A DNA stretch of 59,783 bases, the filler included, from Basidiobolus ranarum (lineage: Eukaryota), in the NCBI GenBank assembly GCA_040143965.1. It is 7 parts of 7 records of this genome, joined end to end, with 100 filler letters (N's around TTAATTAATTAA, not from the genome) between each part and the next. Parts side by side here need not be neighbours in the genome. Positions count along the whole stretch, not along the records: positions 1 to 8,478 come from JASJQH010007839.1; 6 more parts are not named here. One strand, written 5' to 3'. Positions 1 to 51,347 of this stretch are shown piece by piece; positions within the stretch are counted from its first letter, which is position 1, and every line of letters begins with the position of its first letter. Position numbers and translations under genes: made by a program. The notes beneath the pieces were generated by a model that was given only the letters and a program-made list of their open reading frames with translations, did no database searches and was not told where the DNA came from.

Positions 1-1389
1 ATAAAGCAACGAGAGTTAAATTCTATGTTTGTGCAATACTTAATGAATATGAAGCCGGGCTCCATCGAAAAACGTCGAGAATCCACATTTCGGATTTCAC
101 CAAAATCAGAAACCTCAAATATTGCGGAGAGAGCGGATGTCATGAGTATCGACTCTGGAACAGGTTTATTGACTTCCATAGAGCACAAAGCTCTTGCTCC
201 CTACAATATTAAGGAAGTAATAATCAGTAACTTGCGGTCTAGCTCACCACACATCATCATCACGACACTAAATCTTCTACACACAATGTTAGAATGTCAT
301 TGCCATCATTCTTTTGACTTATTTGAGGTTGAATTAGTTTTCGATCTCGAAACGCATGACGCAGATATTGGGATAACCAATTCAGAAGAATTGGAAAAAC
401 TACGAGGCCAAGCACAAGGACTAAAGGCGGTCGAACATATACGAGTGATGGACCTTTATTTTGCTCTAATCTCAAGAATAGATTCTACGTACGATAAAGA
501 GGAATTTGTTCAAAGTTATGAAGATTATTTTTTGGATGTTCAACATCAGATTGAGGGACATCAGGAATATCATCAAGAGTGTGCTTTGCACAAAACCTCG
601 AGCAGAAAAAGAAGGGAAGAAACTGAAGGTCACCATCGCCCACTTCTTATTTCAGAAAAACAACCAAGCTTGTACTTCACAAGGCACCGTTTAAACACCG
701 CTGATCCTATCTTGGGAATCTTATTGTCGCTATTATCACAGTTTTTCGCTCATTCTTGCGAATTCAATCTAGCTCTGACAAGAGTTCTGTCAACGCTTGC
801 TACTTGCCCATATCGCTGCATAAGTGGGTGGTTGTCCTTTGAAGAGCATACCAAATTCCCTGTGGATACTAGAAATTCACCAGCCAGTTCTATTCAAGCC
901 ATTCTATGCTCTGAAGCTGACTTGGTTGAAAACGTTGAAGTGAAGCATAAGGATCCTAGTGTATTATCTGTATTCCATACGCTAACTGAGCATGTATCTT
1001 ATTATCGATCGAAAGTCCCTAACTTGGATCAAATGCTTAACGATCGTAGAGAATATTTTCTTGACCGATCCAGCAAAGAGCAGTCCATCAAATCAAGCAT
1101 TACTCAACTTAACAAACCTCTAGATGACGAAGACGAATTCTATGAGTCTGACCTTCTCTCACCTACCAGTGCAGACGCAATACCAATAACAGGATCGTTC
1201 CTTCGTCATGTTGACACTTATAACTCCACTACAAGTAGTACCCAAAGCAAGGAAATACCACCGATTCAAGTCAACAATATTTCTTCACTAGTAGACAATA
1301 TTATTATTTTAAATGAGGCTATGAAGGAATTGACGTGCATTATTGAAGTACGAAAAAGCCTCGGATCGGATTATGTGAGTTACATTTAA
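1..1389 (+). CDS. FHIP/FAM160 (RAI16-like) family protein, 5'-truncated
   Basis: Frame is open from base 1. The segment ILGILLSLLSQFFAHSCEFNLALTRVLSTLATCPY..GWL and the terminal LVDNIIILNEAMKELTCIIEVR resemble FAM160/FHIP C-termini. Recognised by eye. Confidence 0.7.
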   Translation: MKQRELNSMFVQYLMNMKPGSIEKRRESTFRISPKSETSNIAERADVMSIDSGTGLLTSIEHKALAPYNIKEVIISNLRSSSPHIIITTLNLLHTMLECHCHHSFDLFEVELVFDLETHDADIGITNSEELEKLRGQAQGLKAVEHIRVMDLYFALISRIDSTYDKEEFVQSYEDYFLDVQHQIEGHQEYHQECALHKTSSRKRREETEGHHRPLLISEKQPSLYFTRHRLNTADPILGILLSLLSQFFAHSCEFNLALTRVLSTLATCPYRCISGWLSFEEHTKFPVDTRNSPASSIQAILCSEADLVENVEVKHKDPSVLSVFHTLTEHVSYYRSKVPNLDQMLNDRREYFLDRSSKEQSIKSSITQLNKPLDDEDEFYESDLLSPTSADAIPITGSFLRHVDTYNSTTSSTQSKEIPPIQVNNISSLVDNIIILNEAMKELTCIIEVRKSLGSDYVSYI

Positions 1390-1927
1390 ATTTTTTGACA
1401 TTTAATCTTTTACACAAATGCATTCCAGCATCGTACATTTCACTTAGAACCGTAAATAATTTGGAGTTTAATAGAATACTTTATTGCTTTAGTAAACAGA
1501 ATCTTAACAGGCTACCAAGTATTCTATCATCACACATTACTACTACATTATACTTCTACTATAGAATACATTGAATTGAAAGGCATTTGGAATCTTTATA
1601 CTTTTACATCTTAGAAAAGAAAGAATTTTGCTAATATATATCAATTTATTTATACTATGCTTGAGATTGATTTACTAAAAACCCGTACATAATAAGCCTT
1701 CTACGATGGTATATTTCAAATTTTCTAGCAGATGTTCATAATGGTGATTGCGTATCTCAAAGCCGTATATTTTAAGCGGAAGTTGGTCTTTAGATCAATT
1801 TTCTACTCCAGAACATATCGTAGTTGAACTGTTGAAGGCTGAAAGCGATGGAATGCTCTCAGGTATCAATCATTGATCGATCAATATGTGATGAAATCGA
1901 CAATGTGAATTATGGTAACTTTTATAG

Positions 1928-2734
1928 TTATCTGATCTAGAATTACAGTGAAGTGGCAATTATTGGCTGGAACCTAATGGAGGAAGTAAAATCCATATTC
2001 TATCAGGAGCCTTTGGTGAGAGGTGATGAGATACAATTAGAAAATCGTCTATGCGACTCATTTTCAATCTGATAATGATTCTTGATGATGCAATAGTTAT
2101 CAGATTGGCATTATGATCTAGAATGAAATGCTGGTATGATAGAATTCCTTTGGCTTGATCCTACGTGAGTTTACTATGGATCAACGCTTGGTGGTGAAAA
2201 GCTCACCGTATATATATATTCATCACTATTGTATTTTCGGATATACTAATCATAGTTCTATTCTTGGAAACAGATTCCGATGAATTACTATTGGGCTAGA
2301 TGAAGTGGTCGTTTATCTGATCCTTTCCAAACTTACCTACTAAATGTTACGCTAATGAATTTGTGTGGAATCAGTTACGTGTCACTACTTGACATCATTT
2401 ACAGAGAGAAATATCTGATCTACTCCAGGTCATTTTCAGTATTGGAAGGAATGCGAGTAATTTATCAGATGAGCATTATAAACCCAAATGGAGTTCAGAA
2501 TTCGGCTCGTTACTCCATTTGGAAATCGGCGCTTGAAATACACCCATTGAAACTGGACATCTAGCTTTACTCTTTTAGTACATCAATAGAAGTGTTTCAA
2601 GATGACTCATTAAGGCTGGAGATCAGTACATTATCAGATGAAAAACACCAGCATTCATTCTTTTTTTATAATCAGTGTGGAGCATAGTAATTCATACGCT
2701 TATTCATAAATACTCCAGGGGTTATTTATCAGAT
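1928..2734. promoter_or_regulatory. Cluster of extended GATA sites ATCWGATAA upstream of CreA-like gene 1
   Basis: Perfect copies (either strand) at 1928, 2067, 2097, 2313, 2462, 2631, 2726; one-mismatch copy at 2411. ATGACTCAT at 2602; TATATAAA at 2766. Confidence 0.75.
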
Positions 2735-2840
2735 CTTGAAAGGGATAGAAATTGGTCGCCAGCAGTATATAAAGTCTTCAGATATAGCCACTTTCTATCA
2801 TTAAGCATTATTCATTCACAAGGCAAATATTATATACGCC

Positions 2841-3623
2841 ATGTCCACTATCGTAGATGTTAATCCTTCTCAAAATTCTCATCCTCTTACTACAGTGAAA
2901 AGTGCCGAAATGGACGAGCTTTTAGCAGTGTTAGACCAAGCAAAGATTCCACGTCCTTACAAATGCCCTTTGTGTGAAAAAGCATTCTACAGAATTGAGC
3001 ATAGAACTAGACACATCCGTATTCATACTGGAGAAAAACCCTATAAATGTGACAGTCCTGATTGCAAAAAATCGTTTTCTAGATCTGACGAACTCGTACG
3101 ACATCAGAAAACCCACGTGAACCCTAAGAAAAGAGGGCGCAAAAGCAAGAAGCAGCTTGCTTTAGAAGCAGAAATAGCCGCCAAAAAGGTGGATGAAAAA
3201 CGCAAGGCCGAATGTATCGACGAGTGCCATTCAGGGACTCTTGATGAGGTACCTAACAAGAGATGCTGTACTTCTGATGAAGAAGCTCAACAGGTCCCCA
3301 GCTCCCCTGTATTCTCATCCTCATCCTCTACCTCAGAAAGTGAAGATGAAACGGTGGCTTCTCCTGAACTGAAGCCTGAGCACAATCTTTCTTTAGAACT
3401 TCTCTGCGAAATATCTGCAAGTATGGCTTCCGAAAGCGAGGTATCGTCCAAGAAACCAGTACAAAACGAGGATTCCGAAACCACTCAACTTCCTAGCTTC
3501 TCACAACTTCTGACGAAGATTTCTAACGATCGTATTCTGCCTCCACCAGTAATGACGAATTCACAATGGGCACGATCACAGTCAATTACTGCTAGCTACT
3601 CTATTTTTCCTGGTCTATTCTAA
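2841..3623 (+). CDS. creA: CreA/Mig1-family C2H2 zinc-finger repressor, paralog 1 (260 aa, intronless)
   Basis: [31 protein letters not shown]...[12 protein letters not shown] is the CreA/Mig1 two-finger signature. Also a basic NLS, a Ser/acidic tract and a C-terminal LPSFSQL motif. Confidence 0.9.
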
Positions 3624-3910
3624 ATTGAGATTACCTTGATTAGCATATTCCTTTTAAAATAATGTAGTTTTGTTGTTGTATATAGACTTTCATTTGTTAT
3701 GCTCCATTGTACAGACTGTCATCGTTAACACTTTTCGCATCAAATGGTCATATTTTCGTCTAAGAAATCATTCATCGATTCTTGAATCAGATATGAAATG
3801 AATTCAACCAAACATTCTTATTCCTAATAAATCATTGCCCCTAGCTGGGTATCGTTAGAACAATAATGAGAAAACTTTACTGCTTAACCAATACGCTATA
3901 CATAGACACT

Positions 3911-4360
3911 TTATCTGATCAAACTCTATAATAACCCCACTAATTATTCTTGCAAGATGGATAAATAGCGATCACCTTGAAATAAAAATGACGTCTGGAT
4001 CCTAACTCCAACGTTACCTGAGACTATATTAAAATCAGATAGCCCCAATAGAAACCCATTCAACCACTGATTGGAATGATTTCAGCCCTTATTTTGATCT
4101 AATACTAACAATACTGACTAGCTTGAAGCTCTTACACACTATAGGATTATGGTATGAGTATAATTATGCGATTGCTGCATTTGTGTTCCAAACACATCAA
4201 AACAACTTTTATCAGATCACCTCATCAAATCAAATCTATCAGATTGTACAGAAATTAAAACTCTCATCCCCCCAGCTTTGATAATTAAGTGGGGTGAATG
4301 GAGAGATCCCAGCAATTATGTAGGTACTAGTATATCAAATAGATGAAATATTTATCTGAT
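3911..4360. promoter_or_regulatory. ATCWGATAA sites between the convergent 3' ends of paralogs 1 and 2
   Basis: Perfect copies at 3911, 4209, 4352; last-base variants at 3786, 4034, 4236. Confidence 0.55.
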
Positions 4361-4674
4361 GATTCTCACCAATCAGCAACTCGTTTGCCTAGAACTCATC
4401 AACTACTCTTGGAGTTGTCCAGATTGTGTGATCAATCATTGCGGTCTCTAGCTTCCAAAGCTGGCTGACATACGTTACATTATATGCATTCCGTACTTTG
4501 CTACAGAAAAGCATAGCATAGGTTGATGATCAAGAACTAGTCTGTTTACGCTGATTTAATATGAAGTTGATCGAATTTATTTCCTTGCTCAAAGATAAAT
4601 GCGTGAACATAACCCGCTTGTCCACAGTCAAGTAATATACAAAGTTTATATACATATAATAACAGCACTAGCGA

Positions 4675-5325
4675 TCATTTTTGGACAGTACAAATGATTC
4701 GAAATGGTAGTACTCTCTCAGCGGATATCATCTTCATGAGCTCATAGAAACTTGGAAGTTGCACGTCGGATTTTCTTTCGTTTAAAGCAAATTCAGGGAC
4801 AACATTCGCCAAATTTTGGCATTTTAGAACAGGCGTAGAAATAGATTCATCTTCACTTTCTGAAGTACAAGAAGATACGGGTGAAGAAGGAGCAGGGCTC
4901 TTAGGGCTTTCGCAAACACGTAATTTCTTCAGAGGACTACTATCTTCTTCCTTAACTTTGCATTGGACGTGAGTGTCTTTATGAGTCTTTTCGGCTTGTG
5001 AATTCATTTCGGCCTCCAAGGCAAGCTGCTTCTTACTCTTTCTACCCCGTTTCTTTGGATTGATGTGTGTTTTTTGATGTCTAATTAACTCATCGGACCT
5101 AGAGAAAGACTTCGTACAATTGGCAAATTCACATTTGTATGGTTTTTCCCCGGTGTGAATTCGAATGTGCCTGGCTCTATGTTCAATACGGTAGAAGGCC
5201 TTTTTGCACAATGGGCACTCATATGGGCGTGGGATCTTGGCATTTTCCAGATTGGCCAGTATGTCACTCATACTGGAATCTTGGTACTGTGACACAGCTT
5301 CTGTCGCTTGGATCTGACAAGACAT
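4675..5325 (-). CDS. creA: CreA/Mig1-family C2H2 zinc-finger protein, paralog 2
   Basis: Same two-finger signature (RIEHRAR / RSDELIR) and LPSFYEL motif. First ATG is at 5325 (the track start 5340 is TTG). TATA-like TATATAAA at about 5402-5409 on the minus strand. Confidence 0.88.
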
Positions 5326-5843
5326 CTTAAGTGTGGTCAAGAAATTGTTTGTAGAAATGATAATACGTGTAATGAGTGAAGTTGGTGTAGGCTTGAATGT
5401 ATTTATATATACTTGTCTACCCTCAACCTGGATTCATCTAACGATGCTTGTAACATATTTTTTTCTTGGAAATCACTTCAATGCCTGGGTCAAATGCACC
5501 CAAAAGGGGAAATTCATCTAATATTGCTACAGTATCTCCGGGATCACCTAATATATCCCGGAAAAACATGGCTTTGTAATTCTGTTCCTATTTATTGGAT
5601 AAATATAGATGATTCAAAAATGGAATTTCATGCCAATAGGGGTGGAACTAGAATTCAGGTTGAATATGCGCGGGGGAATAGCGGCTCACCTACGGATTCC
5701 GCAACTGTAACCATACATGGCTCAACTAGAATATTCTATGGATCTGATATTCAAATCAACTAACTCATCCCTATTGGGTAGCGTGTCAATACTTAATGGA
5801 GAAATGATGTTCTGCCTTTACAAGAGAGATAGTGGTCCAAGAA

Positions 5844-6539
5844 TTATCTGATCTATTGTTTTAGATTGAATTCTGCATTTGGAGTTTTGCATGCAATACT
5901 GGGGGGTTGTGAGTTATCTGATTCTTGTCATCAATGTACAGTTAATATCAAATCGTTTCTTCATGGTGGTATCAGTTACACCTTTAAGTGATACGTTCAC
6001 TTGTGGGGTGAATTATCTGATTGTTCTATTTCCGAGCGAGTTTTAGAGTAGTTAGTAGGGCATTCAGTTTTCCCCCATTAGTAACTTGCTCGCATGGCGC
6101 TCCTCCGCTACTTTTAAACTGAATTAGCATCCGAAAATCACGGTCAAATACAAAAAAAGTGATTTAGACCCATTGCATTCTAGTGAGCAAGTCTACTAAT
6201 TGGTATCTCTACACGTTTTTCGGTATGATTGTCAATGATACCTGCCTTGGTATCCACTACCAACGAAGCAAATGCCGGGAAATTATGTAGAGCTTTTATA
6301 TTTGACTCAGGGTTTCAGCATTATGACAACCAAAAAGGAATCTAAGTAGTTCACCAAAAGAAAACCAATACCCTCTTATACGAAATATCCCGACCTCAAC
6401 GTATTTGGTAAAAACTTGACAGCATCAGATAACTTTTAGAGTGCTTAGTAAAATACTGATATAAAGCTTAGTAAATCAAAAGTTTAATGAATTGTTCAAA
6501 CTGATCATTGGATGACTCTTCAAAATAAAAATCTGATAA
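5844..6539. promoter_or_regulatory. ATCWGATAA sites in the divergent promoter of paralogs 2 and 3
   Basis: Perfect copies at 5844, 5914, 6013, 6424, 6531; variant at 5742. Confidence 0.72.
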
Positions 6540-6635
6540 AACTGACGAAAACCACTATTTAAACGCTTAGTCCACATTGCGCGAGGTGATATACCACATA
6601 TCTAAAACCTGGCAACTTCAACCATTACTTAAGAA

Positions 6636-7352
6636 ATGTACAATAAGGTGAGTAATTCTTCTAATAAAGTAACTACCAACATGCCGAAGTACCAAGATAA
6701 CGCAATGAAGAAACTTCTTGCTGGTTTGGAGAAGTCACAAGACCCTCGTCTTTACAAGTGTCCACTTTGTAGCAAAGGGTTTTATCGTATCGAGCATAGA
6801 ACAAGACATATCCGTATTCATACTGGAGAGAAACCATATCGATGCCAATTTGATGGTTGTCTCAAATCTTTCTCCAGGTCTGACGAACTCGCTAGGCATC
6901 ATAAAACTCATGTCAATCCCAAGAAAAGAGGTAGAAAGAGTAAGAAGCAACTTGAATTAGAAGCTGAACTAGATACCAAACGTAAAGTTGAGGAGATGAA
7001 GTATGGTAATAGCAACTCTACAGGTAGTGACATTAAAAAATCTTTGAGCCCAAAGCGAGTCAAGACCAACAAAGAGATAAGTTGCTCTCCACCATATTCT
7101 CCTGTTTTGTCTGGAACTTCAGAGAGTGATGAAGAGCAGATGACCACTCCCAATATGAAAGTTGAATATTTTTTGGTAGCAAAGCCCCATCCAGTGAACA
7201 TCAAGACCAAGAAAGAAACACAGTTACCTAGTTTTTCCGAGTTGATGAAAATTATCGCGGCTGACAGTGCTCTCTTTGTTGCACCGAGAAGTGAGGGTAT
7301 ATGTTCTGAAGTTTCCATTGGAACTTTCAAGCACAGCGCATTGCAATTATGA
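6636..7352 (+). CDS. creA: CreA/Mig1-family C2H2 zinc-finger protein, paralog 3 (238 aa)
   Basis: RIEHRTR / RSDELAR fingers, [13 protein letters not shown] basic tract, LPSFSEL motif. Confidence 0.88.
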
Positions 7353-7863
7353 ATATTGGCTCTATTCAACTTTGTAAATAATGAAATTTTGTATTCATTG
7401 TATAGAGCTTTTATACCATTCCATCGATATCATAGTAAATTTTTAGTCAAGTTGTTATTCCTACAGTGGAGGCATATTACGAGTGGTTGAATTCAATAAA
7501 AATATCCTACCAGCCTGTCAGCAACTCCAAAGCCGTGGTGTTGGAATTTAGTGGATTCATTCTATGTGAATCATTAGGAATGAAAATTCCTTATACATAT
7601 ATAGTAGACAAGAGATTGAAATAGTGAACTCAAATTGCCAGCTTGTGAATTCTTTGATAAGTGATGTGATACAACTATATCTACTTCTAATATAAGCATT
7701 ATAGAGAACTATCATCCGAAACATCAATTTCCTCCATACATTCCCCATCATCTATCACAATATACTACTCTCCCTAATAAAGGCTTAATTGGACATCGGA
7801 AAATACAAAATTTAAGAATATTCTTCATGCTTGTGTTGGATGCTAAAGAAGTGCAGTTCTGAT

Positions 7864-8195
7864 TGTTGAAATTAGCATTGCCTAAACACCTATATAGTCA
7901 TATATAGTTTAGTATTTAGTTATCTTATACTTCACTAAGATATTACCCATTATTCTCATGAGGAATTTACTTGGAATATTTTTACCTACTTAGAAGTTTG
8001 AAGATATATAGATTTTCAAACTTGTGCTAGAAGTCCCAAACTTTGCACACATGTTCCTGGGACCTTCCTTGACACATTATGCACGTTATTTTGTTTACAT
8101 CATGACAAAACTACAAATGTCAACTCAATAAGTGAGAACCACCAATTTCTCTAATTCTCCAAACCACTTCCAACAGGCTCCCAAATACTTTAACA
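7864..8195 (+). mobile_element. Solo LTR (332 bp), probably Ty1/copia
   Basis: TGTTGAAA...TTTAACA termini with a perfect 5-bp target-site duplication CTGAT (7859-7863 and 8196-8200). Homologous copies at 33.9-34.5 kb and 51.0-51.8 kb. Strand is arbitrary. Confidence 0.9.
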
Positions 8196-8478
8196 CTGAT
8201 ACCGTTTAATGCCATCCACTTGAGAGAAATGGTTATGGATCATTAAACTATGGAAGTATAATAGTCAAAACCTTGGATAATCTTGCCTGCCCTCAAGCTA
8301 TAGTGCAATATATAATAAGAAAGAGAGAGTTTAATCTCTGGTCAAAATCTAATGAACTCAGTACATCTGTCAGAGTGCTGAGGCTCAGTTATTACATAAG
8401 TAGTTTTGCTCTCTAATTACACCAAATCAAGCTTTATTTGAACATAGTGATCTAAGTGAAAAACAGATGAGTATTGCT

Positions 8479-8578
8479 NNNNNNNNNNNNNNNNNNNNNN
8501 NNNNNNNNNNNNNNNNNNNNNNTTAATTAATTAANNNNNNNNNNNNNNNNNNNNNNNNNNNNNNNNNNNNNNNNNNNN
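8479..8578. other. Artificial contig linker
   Basis: N44-TTAATTAATTAA-N44, with stops in all six frames. Confidence 0.98.
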
Positions 8579-8813: not shown

Positions 8814-11535
8814 AACCCTATTGATCTAGTCTCTTTGATAAATATAACAAAATAAATTCTATGGCAATCCTCTTAAATTCATACAGTTAATAGTGCAAAG
8901 TAACATGTACTTTAATCACTATTAAGAAATGTGGGTTTTTTGTAGTAATATTCTCCATATGTATGCAAATTACTTCATTAGATATTCACATCAATCTAAA
9001 TTTTATCGAAAGAATGACCAATGAGAATAAATATTCTCTATTTTTTATAACAGTAATGAGTACTATAATTATAAATCTTCACTCCTCAGCATAGTCATTT
9101 AGCAACTCATGGGCTAACATGAGTAAGCAAGTAATCACTAGTACACTATAAGAGAGGAGTTTCAATATGCCGCGATGTCGGAGATGCTGTAAAGTATAGT
9201 GTATTGTTGATGCATCATTGTTCTGATGATTTAAACTTGCTTTCATCTTTAATACTAAACCTGGCGCCTGTTCGCTGCCAGGATATCATATCGAAGTACA
9301 TTATCAGAAGGCATGCTATATATCGCTTACAGCCAATTAAGTTTAATTTGTACTGTATATTCTCTGCATGCACTTTTTACTTTTAATGATTCTAGCACAT
9401 TACTATAATTAGTTAGTGCTCGTTGCTATAACGTATTTTATATCAGCAAACTTATCATTATTTTCAAAGTGCTTCTAAGCAATTTCACAAAACAATGAAA
9501 GTTTCCACATAGAAGCATATGAATACAACATTGCTTGGTTAAAGATGCGGGTGTAACGACACTTGTGTAGATCAGCATTAACAACATCCATATTTCAAGG
9601 AAGTCCAGAGCGCTCTATGGATTGACTGCTCTTTCTGACGAGTTGTTCTGCCTGTACAAGTATATATTTGAAACTCCTCAAAGAAACATAGGCTAACCCT
9701 ATTTGCCTCATATGTATCAAAAGCAGTCATAAATTAGACAGTATGAGCCGTGCTTGACGAGTAAACATTACTGCTAGATCACAGTTGCCTATTTGCATGA
9801 TTCTGATTTTACATCAATGAGTACCTTGTCGCACGACTGAATCAACAAATTCATTTTAGGTAATTCAGCGCTCAGTAAATGGAACGACCTAGACTTACTG
9901 GTGCTATTGTCTAATCAATGGAGATAATCATTTGAAGTATCAATTGAGAATAAGTTTAGCCTATCTTGGTAACCGACAGCGATTTTCAACAGTCTTGTTT
10001 CCTTGATTATATTAGCCAGACATCCAACAGTACATTGATTGCGAATTGAGCATCAGAATCCACCATTAGCTAACGGTGTGAATAACACGAGAGAGAAGGA
10101 AAACGCAGTCATTACAGACATCCTTCCATTTAAAGATGGAGAAGAGAGAAGGCGATGAGTGATCCTTGTGGACCAAGTATTTTACAAGTCAAACTGCGGG
10201 GACTAATGGTTAGGTTCCTTGGATCCTATATTCCTTCACATTTCATTTGTTTTATGACGATTGAAAATGCTAGTGAGGTGTACGACTTATGACTGCCCAT
10301 TCATGTTAGTTTACAATTGTACAGTTTTTGTAGTGGCTCTAGAGGTCTTTCCTCATCAATCAGTATCTATGACGCCATTGCAATTTCAGGAGTTATTAAA
10401 TGAATATGTCTCAGGCTAGAAAGTAGGATGGTCCGATTATACGTTTAAAGTATCAATGTTGACTCAAATATCTGATACCGTTTGTTTGGTGGGTATTGAT
10501 AAGGTTATACATTTCGTAATAGGACCCGGGAATTCCTTTATGGCAAGTTCTGGTGAAGTATGAGATAACCCCAAGTCCCTTCGATGTACATTTTAGGCCT
10601 GATGATGCACTCAGCACTCAACCTGATCAAATGACCGCTAAATTCATTAAAATCTGACATCATCAACTTTCCAATTTTAAACCATCGCCAGTATCCCATG
10701 AATGAGATCCCACTCCTTGGTTGAAATTTCCCGTTAGTATCTGAACCAATCCTACAATATCCGTGCACAAGTATCTTATTCTTCGCTATGACTACTTTAC
10801 AATAACTGACACGTTAATTATTACAAACGATCAATATATGTAGTATCCATGTATGTGCCATTGTTGAATATATTCATAGTCCTCATACATTCTCTACCTT
10901 CATCACTTTCTCCATTCTTCCTCGAATAAGCGGTCATAACAATAAATGAAGCAACATCTAGAGAAGTAATACTACTCGGTTTATTTTCATGTTTCTGGGA
11001 ATCTCAGGGGGTCACAATATGATGCTAGAGGATAACAGGCAATCCTATCTAAAACGGTTCTGGCAAGACTATCGGGATATATCAACTGACTTCCGAAAAA
11101 GTTCGGGAAAACAATAACAAACCAGATATATGGTAATACTTCATGAAATTCACCATAATGAATACAAACAAAGTTAAATCAGAAATTCGCTTTTCCAATT
11201 AAGAATCATTCTACCCAGGTTGTGACCGGATTTATCCATGATTTTCATTCACTCTGTTTTGTCAATTAAGAATCATTCTTGTCCATGATTATCACAATCA
11301 GTGAAGATTTTTTTATTAGCAATTGTATACAAAGGATATAATTTTCTAGTAAATACTCATAAATCTACCAAGATTACTTGCAATAATATAACTTACATCA
11401 TCTTAGAATCTTCAAATTGGTTCGCGTGTACTACAATTGCATCCAAGGCGTCTTCAAAAGTAACTTGTATTAAAAATCGGAGTAATATTTGCCAATGATG
11501 AAGGATAATAGAGGTTGTCAGGGTGAAAAGAAAGA

Positions 11536-17043: not shown

Positions 17044-17143
17044 NNNNNNNNNNNNNNNNNNNNNNNNNNNNNNNNNNNNNNNNNNNNTTAATTAATTAAN
17101 NNNNNNNNNNNNNNNNNNNNNNNNNNNNNNNNNNNNNNNNNNN
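17044..17143. other. Artificial contig linker
   Basis: N-TTAATTAATTAA-N, 100 nt. Confidence 0.98.
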
Positions 17144-20628: not shown

Positions 20629-21120
20629 TGTAGTCACACCATAGCCATCAGCGTTAATCGATGAAATATAGATCAGTTCGGTTCAAGTTGTATATTTTTT
20701 CTTCTCCTAGTGCCCTGGACTACATATACCAACAAATATCCCCATCCCAATCCCTTGACAGTTGAGCTATCTATTTGATTCTTTATAGAGAAGATCTATC
20801 TGGTTCTTTATAGAGAATACATTAGATCTATCTGATAGATACATAAATATCGAACGAAATAAACGCCACAAAACATTGTTGAGTGACTGACATGAAGGGG
20901 TGGGTGGGGGCGTGGTTGAGGAGGGTTGGGTAGATAAATATGAAAATTACAAGCCTTGAGAATCAATGATTAATTAACATAAAATTGGTGAGGAGATTCT
21001 CCTATGTAGGCGGCTCTCTTTCGAATTCAAAAAAACCAAGAAAGTGACAAAAGTGAAATGATACATTAACAAAGAAAATCAATTGAAAGAGAAGAACCAA
21101 AAGCCGACATAAAATCTTAT

Positions 21121-23560
21121 TTATCTATTCCATAAATGGGATGGTCGATGGGTCTTGTTTTTGGCAAAGTAGAGTCCACAAGCATTGCATAGCTTAGTGT
21201 CTGGTGTCTCGCCAGCTCTCCAGCCAGGTGTATCTGAAGTACCACAGTTGGCACATTTAAGTTGTGGCTTATCTGGGTCGTGTCTCTTACTCGGTTTATT
21301 CGTTTTGGTTGGTGTAGGATTGGCACTTAATGGCTTTGGAATTCTGGGCGCAACCTTGATATTGGTCGGTGTGGTCGGGAGGCCTTGAACGGTACGTGTC
21401 ATGGTGATCGGAGAGACAACTGAGGCTCCAGGTCGCAATATAGGCCTTTGAGTTGTTATTTCGGTGGTCGGGGCACAACGTGCTAGTTGGAACAGTCTTA
21501 AACGAACCTTCTCTTGAAGCAATTCTTTAGTCTGAGACGCAGAGGTAGTATTGTTCTCGGAGACCGATACTTGTGCTAGTCCATTAGAAGTGCTATTCAT
21601 TGTAGGTGGCGTTGAGGTGATTATGGATCCTGCTGAAGGTAAAGTAGGCGATAGGGGGTTATTCGAGCTGGGGATTGCATTGACATTCACAGAGGCCTCC
21701 AAGTTGGTACTACTTGCTGAGTTCTCTGAAGGAGCAGCAGTCTCCATATTTGAGGGTGTCGCGGGTGGAGAAGCAATTAGCTCTTTGATTTCCTCTTTAT
21801 TTTTATCCAAAAGGGATTGAAGGGCAGCCTGATCTAGTCTAGTTGAGAAAACTTCGGGTTGTTTCCAATCACTCTCTTTGAACAAAGCATCCAAGTCAAT
21901 GATTTGCTTTCTCCACTGCTCGAGTTCACCTATCTCCTGTCGTAGTTTGGGCAATCTCTCCAGCCTCTTGATTTCTTCAAGCACATCAACATTACCAAGC
22001 CCAGTCTCCAATGTACCTACTACCGTTGAATCGTGGGGAGAGTCATGTCTTTTCTCGATGATTTCCTGCACCTTGTTGACAATATTATGGGCACCCTTTG
22101 TCAGATTGTTCAAGGTATCTTGACAGTAATTCTCAAGATTACCACCAGTATCTTTCATGAATTCCTGAATACTTTGTGAATAAGCAAAGCCTCTCTCATC
22201 TCCGTACGTGTTGAATAAGAAGCTCGTTCTTTCGTTCGATACTGGTGGTGGAGCTGGACCGAGAGTGGCGAATGGCCCATAGTCCAGGAATGATGCTCGC
22301 TTGAATACGTTTTCGGTGAACGGATTACTGAAGCTCGTGATCACGGTGAGATTAGGTACCTCTGGGCAAAGGGAGATTGAGGGTATGAATGAATCAAGAT
22401 CAGCGCCTAGTCGAGTTACAAAACAACGGTTTAGTAGAGACAATTTGATGTATACAACTGATTCACCTCTTACCTGGATCCAAACTTCCGTCTCCTCTGA
22501 AAGAATATTTGAACTGTCCATCAAACAATCGCTTAGGGATCGCGCTTTTAGCACTGGGCTTTCTTCCTCTTTGAGCAGGTATCTTCATTGGGGTTTGGGA
22601 CCTTGAGCTTTCAGCATTGAATCCGAGTTCCTGTTGAGAACGAGGGATTTCAGTAGATACTTCAACATTTCTTAGGCCATGGCTATCGTTTATCAGCCCT
22701 TCTACATCTACATCATCGTCCAACTTGGGGCTGAGACGCTCTATCATCACGTTGGGTCGCTCTTTCTCAATGGCACGTAGACCGTATTGCCAAATCTTAT
22801 GAGCGTTTTTGTAGTACATTGTCTCTGGGCCATTGTAAGTTTTGGCATTATTACATACCAGTTCGAAATCCGACTTGAATTCGTCCAACGAGCGATAGAA
22901 CTTCTTCTCGATTTTCTTGCCTATTGTCCCAAAATCCATAGGATTTTTAATAACATCTCTGTAATCGGTTACAACGCTTGTATCCACCGGTTCCAAAAAG
23001 AATCCATATGCATCCTTCTTGATAAACGATTCCAACAACTTATGCAAAGTAGAGTTTAATTCTTTATGCTTCACTGCCTGGCTAAGTTTGTTAGACATAG
23101 AATTTCCAAACGGTTTACTACCTGTGGATTTCAACGATATTCTTGCGTGTATACCATTCTTATCTGGACTTTGTGAAGATTTTCTTTGCTTAAATGTAGC
23201 CTCTGAAGGCTCCTCCTTTACGTCAATGAGACTATTTTTTCGACCAAGATCCATACCACCATCTAGATGAATGTTCTCTTCTTCAGAATCGCTAGAATCA
23301 CTAGAATTAGTTGCATTTCCAGAGATATCCTCTAATAGATTCAGTTTTCTCTTTTTTCCTGAGCCATAAGAGGGAATTTCAGTGTAGATCTCCTTCTCTG
23401 AACGTTCGTCTTCTTCTTCATCTGACCAAAAACTACTCACGTCTGATAAGTCGGAATTTTTGGAACTTTGTTCAGAGTGTTCAGTTGGAATGTGCTTTGC
23501 TGCTGGTACTTTCAAAGATATTTTTAACCTTTTGGGTGTTGCTTCCTCTACACAAGTCAT
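21121..23560 (-). CDS. BRD7/BRD9-like bromodomain protein with C-terminal GATA zinc finger (2 exons, about 790 aa)
   Basis: Intron 22473-22407 (GTAAGA..CTAG) joins the two track ORFs in frame. Bromodomain KKDAYGFFLEPVD..V.DY..VIKNPMDF...NAKTYN; BRD7/9-type LDYGPF..LGP and TYGDERG..YS.SIQEF; CANC-X18-CNAC finger. Confidence 0.85.
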
Positions 23561-25128: not shown

Positions 25129-25604
25129 CTATGTGAGGATAAGTTGAATATGAAGCAAGTGGAGAGATATATTATCACTAAAGAGCCGTATCAGATCTGA
25201 TAGAGATGTTGTATAACAAATTCTGGATAATATTCGGGGTCCTCTAAAGGGGGGAGGGGAGGAAGGGTAGACGTGGATAGTCCTGATACGCTAGAAACAT
25301 CATGAGCACATATAACTTGAACTGGCAATTTGGGGGGGGAGGTTAACAAAGCTATTGAGGGCATCGGAGACATATTACCAAGAACCGCGAATGCACTTGT
25401 GATGGTTGTTTATTCTAATTAGGTCAAAATACATATATCAATTATCGACATCAGGAGAATCTGATCGTTTATATTTGGTGAGCATGCCAATGAATGTATA
25501 CAAAATGGTCAAAAAGTATTAGAGACACGACAAAGCTTGTAGGATAGATATTTGCATGGTTGATCACGTCTGGCGATATTCTTCGTCGCTGGAATCATCT
25601 AGCC

Positions 25605-25704
25605 NNNNNNNNNNNNNNNNNNNNNNNNNNNNNNNNNNNNNNNNNNNNTTAATTAATTAANNNNNNNNNNNNNNNNNNNNNNNNNNNNNNNNNNNNNNNN
25701 NNNN
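25605..25704. other. Artificial contig linker
   Basis: N-TTAATTAATTAA-N, 100 nt. Confidence 0.98.
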
Positions 25705-28344: not shown

Positions 28345-29429
28345 CTAGCGAAATTGTTTATCATTAATCCACTCATCAAACATTTGATCTGACGCAAGTA
28401 TGGCTTGTTGTTTAAATATCTCCCGGTCCCATCGTAGAAAATGTAGGCCACAAGAGCTGAGTAGAAGTCCAGTTCCGATAACATTCCACACATGCCACCA
28501 AAACTTAAACTGTTTTACTAAAGTAGTTTCGTCATTGCCAGAAATGAGAAACCAGCGAATATATGGCTTACTAATCTGAAAGATACCCGGGCGTGGAGAA
28601 TGTAAGTAGCCAAGAATAAGAACTGGTTTGTTGGCTCGAAGTATACTTTCTTGAGTCTAGATTGAGTAAGATGTCAGTTCTCAAGTTTTGCGCACTAGAA
28701 AGGAAAGCTAAAGAGGTCTACATAGGTTTCAGTAATGGTTTTTTCAAGAATATATTCTGCTCCCTTTCCAATTACAGTTACAGCAGTGCCATCTGATAAG
28801 CGACATAGCCACGGAGTTTGTGAAATCTCGTCATAGAATTCCTTGAGAATGATAGTCAATGAATAGTAAAAAAATGGTTTCATTCAAGCAAGTACCTGCT
28901 TTAGTATACTCTTACTATTCCATATTGCTCGGCTTTTGCATTTGACCATCCGGAGGTATCTGATTTTTGTGTAAACAGAATCATGTCCTGATAATCCAGC
29001 TGTAATTGGCTTTTTAGTCTCTGCAATACCTTTAATCTAAGAAACATGTTAGTATAAATGAGCAGCATAATTTTCACTCAGAGGTACGTGTCAAAACGAA
29101 GTCTTTCGTCACCAATATACTTGTTTTTAGTTTTGTAACATTTACAATTTCTATAGTATTCAGTAAATAGATGCATTTAAAATTACAAAGTAAACGATAC
29201 TCTTATATCGCATTTAAATATTAAATCCTTCAACCTTAAAGTACCCTCCCTTGAGCCAGCCATTCTGCAGAATTTCTAATGCCTCCATTAAATCCTCCTT
29301 AGAGCCGAGGAACGGTGTTTGTTGAATGCGGATAGCTTTTCTACCATATTTTAGGTACCCATATATCAAAGAGCTCAAGCCGAATAGTCCTGAAAGCACT
29401 ACAGCGAGATCAAGGTGCCTACTCTTCAT
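28345..29429 (-). CDS. Two-TM GIDE/BAM-domain protein (MUL1/SP1-like) without RING; 4 exons, about 255 aa
   Basis: Predicted exons 29429-29235, 29036-28896, 28841-28722, 28656-28345, all phase 0. N-terminal TM, TPW..RL.DG..V.V, QESIL..NKPVLILG....G.FQI.KP...FLIS..DE..LV, then a second TM. Family assignment is by eye; the last exon is absent from the ORF track. Confidence 0.62.
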
Positions 29430-34157: not shown

Positions 34158-34257
34158 NNNNNNNNNNNNNNNNNNNNNNNNNNNNNNNNNNNNNNNNNNN
34201 NTTAATTAATTAANNNNNNNNNNNNNNNNNNNNNNNNNNNNNNNNNNNNNNNNNNNN
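34158..34257. other. Artificial contig linker
   Basis: N-TTAATTAATTAA-N, 100 nt. Confidence 0.98.
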
Positions 34258-42706: not shown

Positions 42707-42806
42707 NNNNNNNNNNNNNNNNNNNNNNNNNNNNNNNNNNNNNNNNNNNNTTAATTAATTAANNNNNNNNNNNNNNNNNNNNNNNNNNNNNNNNNNNNNN
42801 NNNNNN
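42707..42806. other. Artificial contig linker
   Basis: N-TTAATTAATTAA-N, 100 nt. Confidence 0.98.
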
Positions 42807-51247: not shown

Positions 51248-51347
51248 NNNNNNNNNNNNNNNNNNNNNNNNNNNNNNNNNNNNNNNNNNNNTTAATTAAT
51301 TAANNNNNNNNNNNNNNNNNNNNNNNNNNNNNNNNNNNNNNNNNNNN
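51248..51347. other. Artificial contig linker
   Basis: N-TTAATTAATTAA-N, 100 nt. Confidence 0.98.

Follow-up and report, generated by a model that had tools for sequence, protein, structure and literature searches.

Fungal iron-responsive GATA repressors carry two GATA fingers flanking a Cys-rich region; they bind their sites when iron is sufficient and leave them when it is scarce (PMC6652802). In Aspergillus fumigatus, the extended motif ATCWGATAA is over-represented 5.4-fold in the SreA regulon; the same source reports that it fits the in vivo sites of the SreA orthologues of Ustilago and Schizosaccharomyces pombe, and likens it to palindromic sites of vertebrate GATA-1 genes (Schrettl and colleagues, PMC2610380). 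ATCWGATAA has also been noted in silico in the promoter of the Mucor siderophore gene rfs. Here, we describe an array of 20 sites of this type around three small CreA/Mig1-type genes in Basidiobolus. The array lies in a stretch of 59,783 bases (the window, that is, the whole stretch of DNA analysed). A first-pass annotation of this DNA had taken ATCWGATAA for the extended consensus of the fungal iron GATA factors, in agreement with the published SreA regulon motif and with the Ustilago and S. pombe sites (PMC2610380).

In the described systems, iron GATA repressors also act on genes of other regulators, with mutual control between Fep1 and Php4 and repression of SEF1 by Sfu1 (PMC6652802). The closest likeness to the circuit proposed here is provided by SreA/HapX in Aspergillus and Fep1/Php4 in S. 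pombe, where an iron-sensing GATA repressor acting at ATCWGATAA-type sites shuts off not only uptake genes but also the gene of a second regulator (PMC2610380, PMC6652802, PMC3272694). This second regulator is induced in starvation and represses iron-consuming pathways (PMC3272694, PMC6652802). In Candida albicans, the regulator gated by Sfu1 belongs to a different, recruited family (PMC6652802). The Basidiobolus locus differs from SreA/HapX and Fep1/Php4 in that the genes that would be gated encode C2H2 proteins of the CreA/Mig1 type and not a partner of the CCAAT complex, and in that three such genes are clustered together with about 20 sites. Sef1 is an activator of iron uptake from another family, whereas the Basidiobolus proteins, called mini-CreA below, look like repressors, as judged from their family.

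A link between Mig1 and iron has been described in Cryptococcus neoformans, where HapX reduces the transcripts of MIG1; Mig1 increases those of HAPX when iron is low and also influences mitochondrial and iron-use genes (PMC4863601). Mig1 is thus likewise tied to iron there, but via HapX and not via GATA sites at MIG1, and it is one full-length protein as opposed to a triad of 216-260 amino acids (aa). As judged from the listings of our literature searches, no paper described an iron GATA factor directly gating CreA/Mig1 genes. Searches on SreA or iron regulators in Basidiobolus or Zoopagomycota found no such study. The opinion of the first-pass annotation that such a circuit had not been described therefore has to be qualified, since gating of regulator genes by iron GATA factors is textbook knowledge and the Cryptococcus Mig1-HapX link is known. 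The upstream half of the proposed circuit (GATA repressor, ATCWGATAA and gating of regulator genes) is a known design, and the difference is in the downstream CreA-type triad.

The locus lies wholly inside the first of the seven unlinked pieces that make up the window (positions 1-8478). Genes A and B are convergent, genes B and C are divergent, and the sites fall upstream of A and in the two spacers. In the following list, exact sites come from a motif search and last-base variants from a listing of ATCWGAT cores; the TATA-like boxes were identified by reading the sequence, and their function is putative.

2841-3623, plus strand: gene A, 260-aa mini-CreA/Mig1-type protein with two C2H2 fingers (open reading frame (ORF), Pfam, alignment, tree)
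4675-5325, minus strand: gene B, 216-aa mini-CreA/Mig1-type protein (ORF, Pfam, alignment, tree)
6636-7352, plus strand: gene C, mini-CreA/Mig1-type protein, 238-aa ORF from 6636 (223 aa in the database copy, with the start at 6681)
1928-1936, minus strand: exact site ATCAGATAA
2067-2075, plus strand: exact site ATCTGATAA, inverted pair with the site at 2097
2097-2105, minus strand: exact site ATCTGATAA
2313-2321, minus strand: exact site ATCAGATAA
2411-2419, minus strand: variant site ATCAGATAT
2462-2470, minus strand: exact site ATCTGATAA
2631-2639, minus strand: exact site ATCTGATAA
2726-2734, minus strand: exact site ATCTGATAA, 32 bp upstream of the TATA-like box of gene A
2766-2774, plus strand: TATA-like box of gene A, TATATAAAG, 75 bp 5' of the ATG
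3786-3794, plus strand: variant site ATCAGATAT
3911-3919, minus strand: exact site ATCAGATAA in the convergent A/B spacer
4034-4042, plus strand: variant site ATCAGATAG
4209-4217, minus strand: exact site ATCTGATAA
4236-4244, minus strand: variant site ATCTGATAG
4352-4360, minus strand: exact site ATCAGATAA
5402-5411, minus strand: TATA-like box of gene B, TATATATAAA on the minus strand, about 80 bp 5' of the ATG
5742-5750, plus strand: variant site ATCTGATAT
5844-5852, minus strand: exact site ATCAGATAA
5914-5922, minus strand: exact site ATCAGATAA
6013-6021, minus strand: exact site ATCAGATAA
6424-6432, plus strand: exact site ATCAGATAA
6531-6539, plus strand: exact site ATCTGATAA, 17 bp upstream of the TATA-like box of gene C
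6556-6563, plus strand: TATA-like box of gene C, TATTTAAA
1-1389, plus strand: 3' part of the upstream gene with a DUF5917 domain (Pfam PF19314, E 5e-13), an ORF open at its 5' end with no motif inside; it lies outside the module and forms its left border
8479-8578, 17044-17143, 25605-25704, 34158-34257, 42707-42806 and 51248-51347: N44-TTAATTAATTAA-N44 linkers between the pieces

The exact motif ATCWGATAA occurs 16 times in the window, 15 times at the locus and once at 28791. All 15 sites that the first-pass annotation had placed here were recovered by the motif search at exactly the same positions, and its five last-base variants (ATCWGATAN, with cores at 2413, 3786, 4034, 4238 and 5742) are present, bringing the total to 20. 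Dinucleotide shuffling of the window (100 shuffles) yields a mean of 2.42 and a maximum of 6 exact sites, or about one per 25 kb, close to the initial rough estimate of one copy per about 20 kb. At this window-wide rate, about 0.19 exact sites would be expected in the 4.6-kb locus, compared to the observed 15 (Poisson P(>=15) = 8.5e-24). When expectations were calculated for each interval separately (2000 shuffles each), seven exact sites were found upstream of gene A (1390-2840) against 0.15 expected, three in the convergent A/B spacer (3624-4674) against 0.09, and five in the divergent B/C spacer (5326-6680) against 0.06. The exact motif is absent from the 1.1 kb downstream of gene C and from all four coding regions of the first contig. 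The 15 sites had been described as non-coding; this status is based on ORF-based gene models and on consecutive B. ranarum locus tags. The first contig contains 21 ATCWGAT cores, 20 of them inside the three intergenic intervals. Each of these 20 reads ATCWGATA on one strand, and 15 read ATCWGATAA; the remaining core, at 545 within the upstream coding region, has no GATA reading. Thus, the sites, their extreme enrichment and their confinement to three intergenic intervals are real.

The seven pieces are 8,436-8,478 bases each and stand in falling order of size. For two genes of the first piece, the protein database gives a contig of exactly 8,478 bases. The six other pieces are separate contigs; therefore, the "rest of the window" (50.8 kb), in which one further perfect copy had been noted, is not the flanks of the mini-CreA locus. 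The copy itself, at 28791, exists, but its assignment to a coding exon is not borne out, with 62 aa as the longest frame across it that is free of stops. Used as a background from the same assembly (50,765 bases), the six contigs contain one exact site and nine ATCWGATA. An outside background was provided by 80 eukaryote-like metagenome loci, obtained in a scan with an alignment of Basidiobolus proteins only; 79 of them (all except locus L080, considered below) contain six exact sites in about 377 kb. For plain WGATAA there is no enrichment, with 20 occurrences in 1390-7400, including the 15 extended sites, and 114 in the other 50.8 kb. Therefore, the enrichment belongs to the extended, partly palindromic form. 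No other enriched words were found in the three spacers beyond pieces of ATCWGATAA, and CCAAT is not enriched there.

Some additional features of the sites can be described. The base preceding ATC in the 20 sites is A in eight cases, G in eight and C in four, never T, and hence the real footprint may be VATCWGATAA. The inverted pair at 2067-2105 (CAATCTGATAATGATT / AATAGTTATCAGATTG), with 11 bases separating its arms, could be a cooperative double site. Symmetric or overlapping variants of ATCWGATA are present in other contigs (25190-25201, 20829-20837 and 10469-10477): ATCAGATCTGATA at 25190, and TATCTGATA at 20830 and 10470, which can be read on either strand. They lie next to a piece of an Arf-family gene and a Kre9/KNH-like gene, with no evident link to iron.

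The three genes surrounded by the sites are intron-less ORFs, each encoding two C2H2 fingers (Pfam zf-C2H2 twice). Besides the Mig1/CreA-type fingers, the proteins have a basic segment, a Ser-rich acidic patch and, in the C-terminal part, the motif QLPSF. In the alignment, they share the fingers, with invariant columns and the segment FSRSDELxRH, an invariant 13-residue stretch, the acidic TSESEDE patch and the C-terminal QLPSFxELM. In a BLAST comparison with a protein named CreA, the finger region shows 54% identity across 99 aa and the same recognition-helix pattern (RxEHxTRH and RSDELxRH). A "Carbon catabolite repressor" cluster of the ESM Atlas is among the nearest matches (score 0.95, 183 shared features). 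By these sequence features, the three genes are of the CreA/Mig1 type, in line with the three CreA/Mig1 paralogs proposed initially. Outside the fingers the similarity is weaker. The Ser/Pro-rich patch and the QLPxxxxL motif are collinear with the C-terminal region of CreA; for the patch this is a weak BLAST segment (E 0.38), and the place of QLPSFSELM matches that of LQLPGLRHLSL in CreA sequences (LQLPxLRHLSL) in a comparison made by eye only. The architecture of full-length CreA (about 370-450 aa) is not found in these proteins, which are 216, 223/238 and 260 aa long compared to 373 and 450 aa in two named CreA proteins. They are about half the length of CreA/Mig1, lack the long linker and belong to a family expanded in the genus. 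Since the finger features are present, the C-terminal motif is plausible and full length is not reached, we refer to them as mini-CreA/Mig1-type. Pfam detects only C2H2 domains in A, B and C and no domain of the CCAAT-complex-binding or bZIP type that characterizes the HapX/Php4 family; any likeness of mini-CreA to HapX/Php4 would be one of circuit position, not of family.

The best matches of the three genes come from Basidiobolus. B. ranarum K7432_006305 matches gene A along the full length with 85% identity, and genes B and C pair with K7432_006304 and K7432_006303; the three counterparts stand together on an 18.5-kb B. ranarum contig. A second B. ranarum triad, K7432_006927/28/29, is located on another contig, and B. 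meristosporus has one B-type and one C-type gene on a single contig. In the maximum-likelihood tree, the A, B and C genes of the window each group with the corresponding B. ranarum genes (the A pair is supported at 87/86, the B pair at 95/93 and the C clade at 99/99), and the B and C groups also include B. meristosporus. This pairing across species implies that the triplication is older than these species, and by the tree the gene triad is old and conserved in the genus Basidiobolus. Among the matches listed there are eight B. ranarum proteins of 175-260 aa, six of them in the two triads. Beyond the triads, B. ranarum has at least two further small relatives (175 and 209 aa), and relatives of about 215-250 aa with a similar C-terminal motif occur in Mucorales. 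The small CreA-like proteins thus seem to form a family of early-diverging fungi.

The motif can accumulate for trivial reasons, and this was observed in the metagenome background. Locus L080 (1-1117) contains 11 copies of ATCTGATAA in 1,117 bases with an exact 84-bp period; it was rejected as a relevant site cluster because a tandem repeat coding for C2H2 zinc fingers spells out the motif. At the mini-CreA locus, the spacings of the array are irregular, the 15-base flanks of the sites are unrelated to each other, and the sites are outside ORFs. Tandem Repeats Finder detected no relevant tandem repeat. A repeat search of the locus returned only the motif itself with a few bases of chance extension, and the paralogous zinc-finger coding parts (71-73% identity). 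The first-pass annotation had named a dispersed repeat as an observation that would speak against its reading; at the locus, neither a dispersed nor a tandem repeat was found. Together with the probability of the array (P about 9e-24), this leaves chance, a repeat or an assembly artefact with a negligible likelihood as the origin of the sites, close to refuted. Moreover, the non-coding flanks share only the motif, while A, B and C are old orthologous groups, which argues for selection on the sites.

We consider the array a set of candidate sites for an SreA-class GATA repressor that would co-regulate the three genes by iron, and give this reading about an even chance. The enrichment of only the extended motif and the presence of GATC, the white-collar core, in just eight of the 20 sites favour a two-finger GATA factor of the SreA/Fep1 class. 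An analysis with B. meristosporus in its sample reports good conservation of siderophore-type GATA factors across fungi and names no result for that species (PMC5311114). In Rhizopus, the GATA factors Znf4 and Znf8 are reported as homologues of SreA (PMC12638772). The main rival is a different GATA factor, nitrogen-related as AreA/AreB, light-related as WC-2, developmental or lineage-specific, so that the genes would answer to nitrogen, light or development. The core is indeed a GATA site, and WC-2C binds GATC (PMC12638772). For genes of the CreA type, a coupling of carbon to nitrogen regulation would also be a natural arrangement. However, GATC is missing from 12 of the 20 sites, a single-finger reader of HGATAR would leave the lack of enrichment of plain WGATAA unexplained, and it is precisely this 9-mer that has been connected with the iron class (PMC2610380). 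We regard this rival as possible, though rather doubtful. Still less probable is that the palindrome ATCWGAT is read by a non-GATA protein, or serves a chromatin role such as that of a boundary element, the match to the iron motif being coincidental. ATCWGAT is a perfect palindrome, six sites are in a 3'-3' spacer, an unexpected place for a promoter element, and the absence of T from position -1 (0 of 20) hints at a footprint longer than 9 bp. On the other hand, all 20 cores extend asymmetrically to GATA and 15 of them to GATAA, which a symmetric reader would not need. Helices of the Mig1/CreA type read G-rich sites, so the mini-CreA proteins themselves, which carry such helices, are expected on those and not on ATCWGATAA.

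Several observations weigh against regulation by an SreA-class factor. Several phyla of early-diverging fungi have expanded GATA families, and in DNA affinity purification sequencing the regions bound were similar for all GATA factors of Rhizopus (PMC12638772); therefore, another GATA factor could own the sites. The orientation of the sites relative to the genes is not uniform: the minus strand holds 12 of the 15 exact sites, the GATAA end faces the nearer gene in all five exact sites of the B/C spacer, and six of the seven exact sites upstream of A point away from the gene. The 3'-3' spacer between the convergent genes A and B, not a classical promoter position, holds six of the 20 sites; a search for a hidden gene in this spacer gave stop-free frames of at most 82 aa, and no Rfam match to a known RNA was found in 1-8478. 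The background from the same assembly is only 50.8 kb. Finally, the scan of the 80 metagenome loci yielded no close relative, the matches being confined to the finger region (at best 68% over residues 37-95).

The window encodes only one GATA finger (21121-22584, minus strand), which has the form CX2CX18CX2C and is carried singly by a bromodomain protein. It belongs to a split gene in the third contig (21121-23641, minus strand) with a bromodomain, DUF3512 and a single C-terminal GATA finger, in which 18 residues separate the Cys pairs. Such a combination of a chromatin reader with a GATA finger is unusual and is unrelated to the SreA type. This finger was rejected as a probe for SreA homologues, because a single X18 finger would not rank SreA-type proteins.

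Under regulation by an SreA-class factor, the locus could operate as follows. When iron is sufficient, a two-finger GATA factor of the SreA/Fep1/Sfu1 class would occupy the sites, with 17-32 bp between some of them and the TATA-like boxes of A and C, and keep the three mini-CreA genes off. The boxes of A and B lie 75-86 bp ahead of the ATGs; the exact site nearest to gene B is about 430 bp from its box. When iron becomes scarce, the factor would leave and A, B and C would be induced together. The induced proteins might then bind SYGGGG-type sites and repress their targets, replacing HapX/Php4 or acting beside it as the arm induced by starvation. With so many sites, the locus would stay silent until very little active repressor is left, resulting in a late, threshold-like response. 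The link of the locus to iron is read from the motif, and we infer which factor binds, that iron is the signal, in which direction the genes are regulated and which targets the three proteins have. An iron-sparing repressor role of the mini-CreA products is less likely than co-regulation of their genes by iron, and we consider it unlikely. The same low probability applies to the complete scenario, in which the iron-sparing starvation arm of Basidiobolus would be carried by, or shared with, the SreA-gated mini-CreA triad, the catabolite-repression machinery would be wired directly to iron status, and the large array would set a high release threshold.

Sites of the Mig1/CreA type (SYGGGG) are present in the A/B and B/C spacers at 3935, 4270, 4289, 5670, 5899 and 6003 (six against 2.3 expected, P 0.03). 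Several of them show an AT-rich 5' flank, as is usual for Mig1 sites; GTGGGGTGAAT is present twice. Autoregulation or cross-regulation by the mini-CreA proteins through these sites was considered, and at P 0.03 it is too weak to claim.

In summary, the locus is a real and striking array of cis-elements and a plausible new variant of the iron-GATA circuit, and by motif and gene content the three genes make good candidates for regulators under the control of iron. Fungal iron regulation is understood from work on Ascomycota and Basidiomycota and hardly from Zoopagomycota, the host here being a Basidiobolus-like zoopagomycete. If the proposed regulation is true, the locus would provide a compact, clean reporter for a factor of the SreA type in an early-diverging fungus, and an example of a conserved upstream sensor gating a different family of downstream regulators; it would also connect carbon control directly with that of iron. 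Should another GATA factor own the sites, the locus would still be a strong handle on the regulon of that factor. Twenty high-quality sites in 4.6 kb also make it a natural case for the study of how the number of sites sets the threshold of a response.

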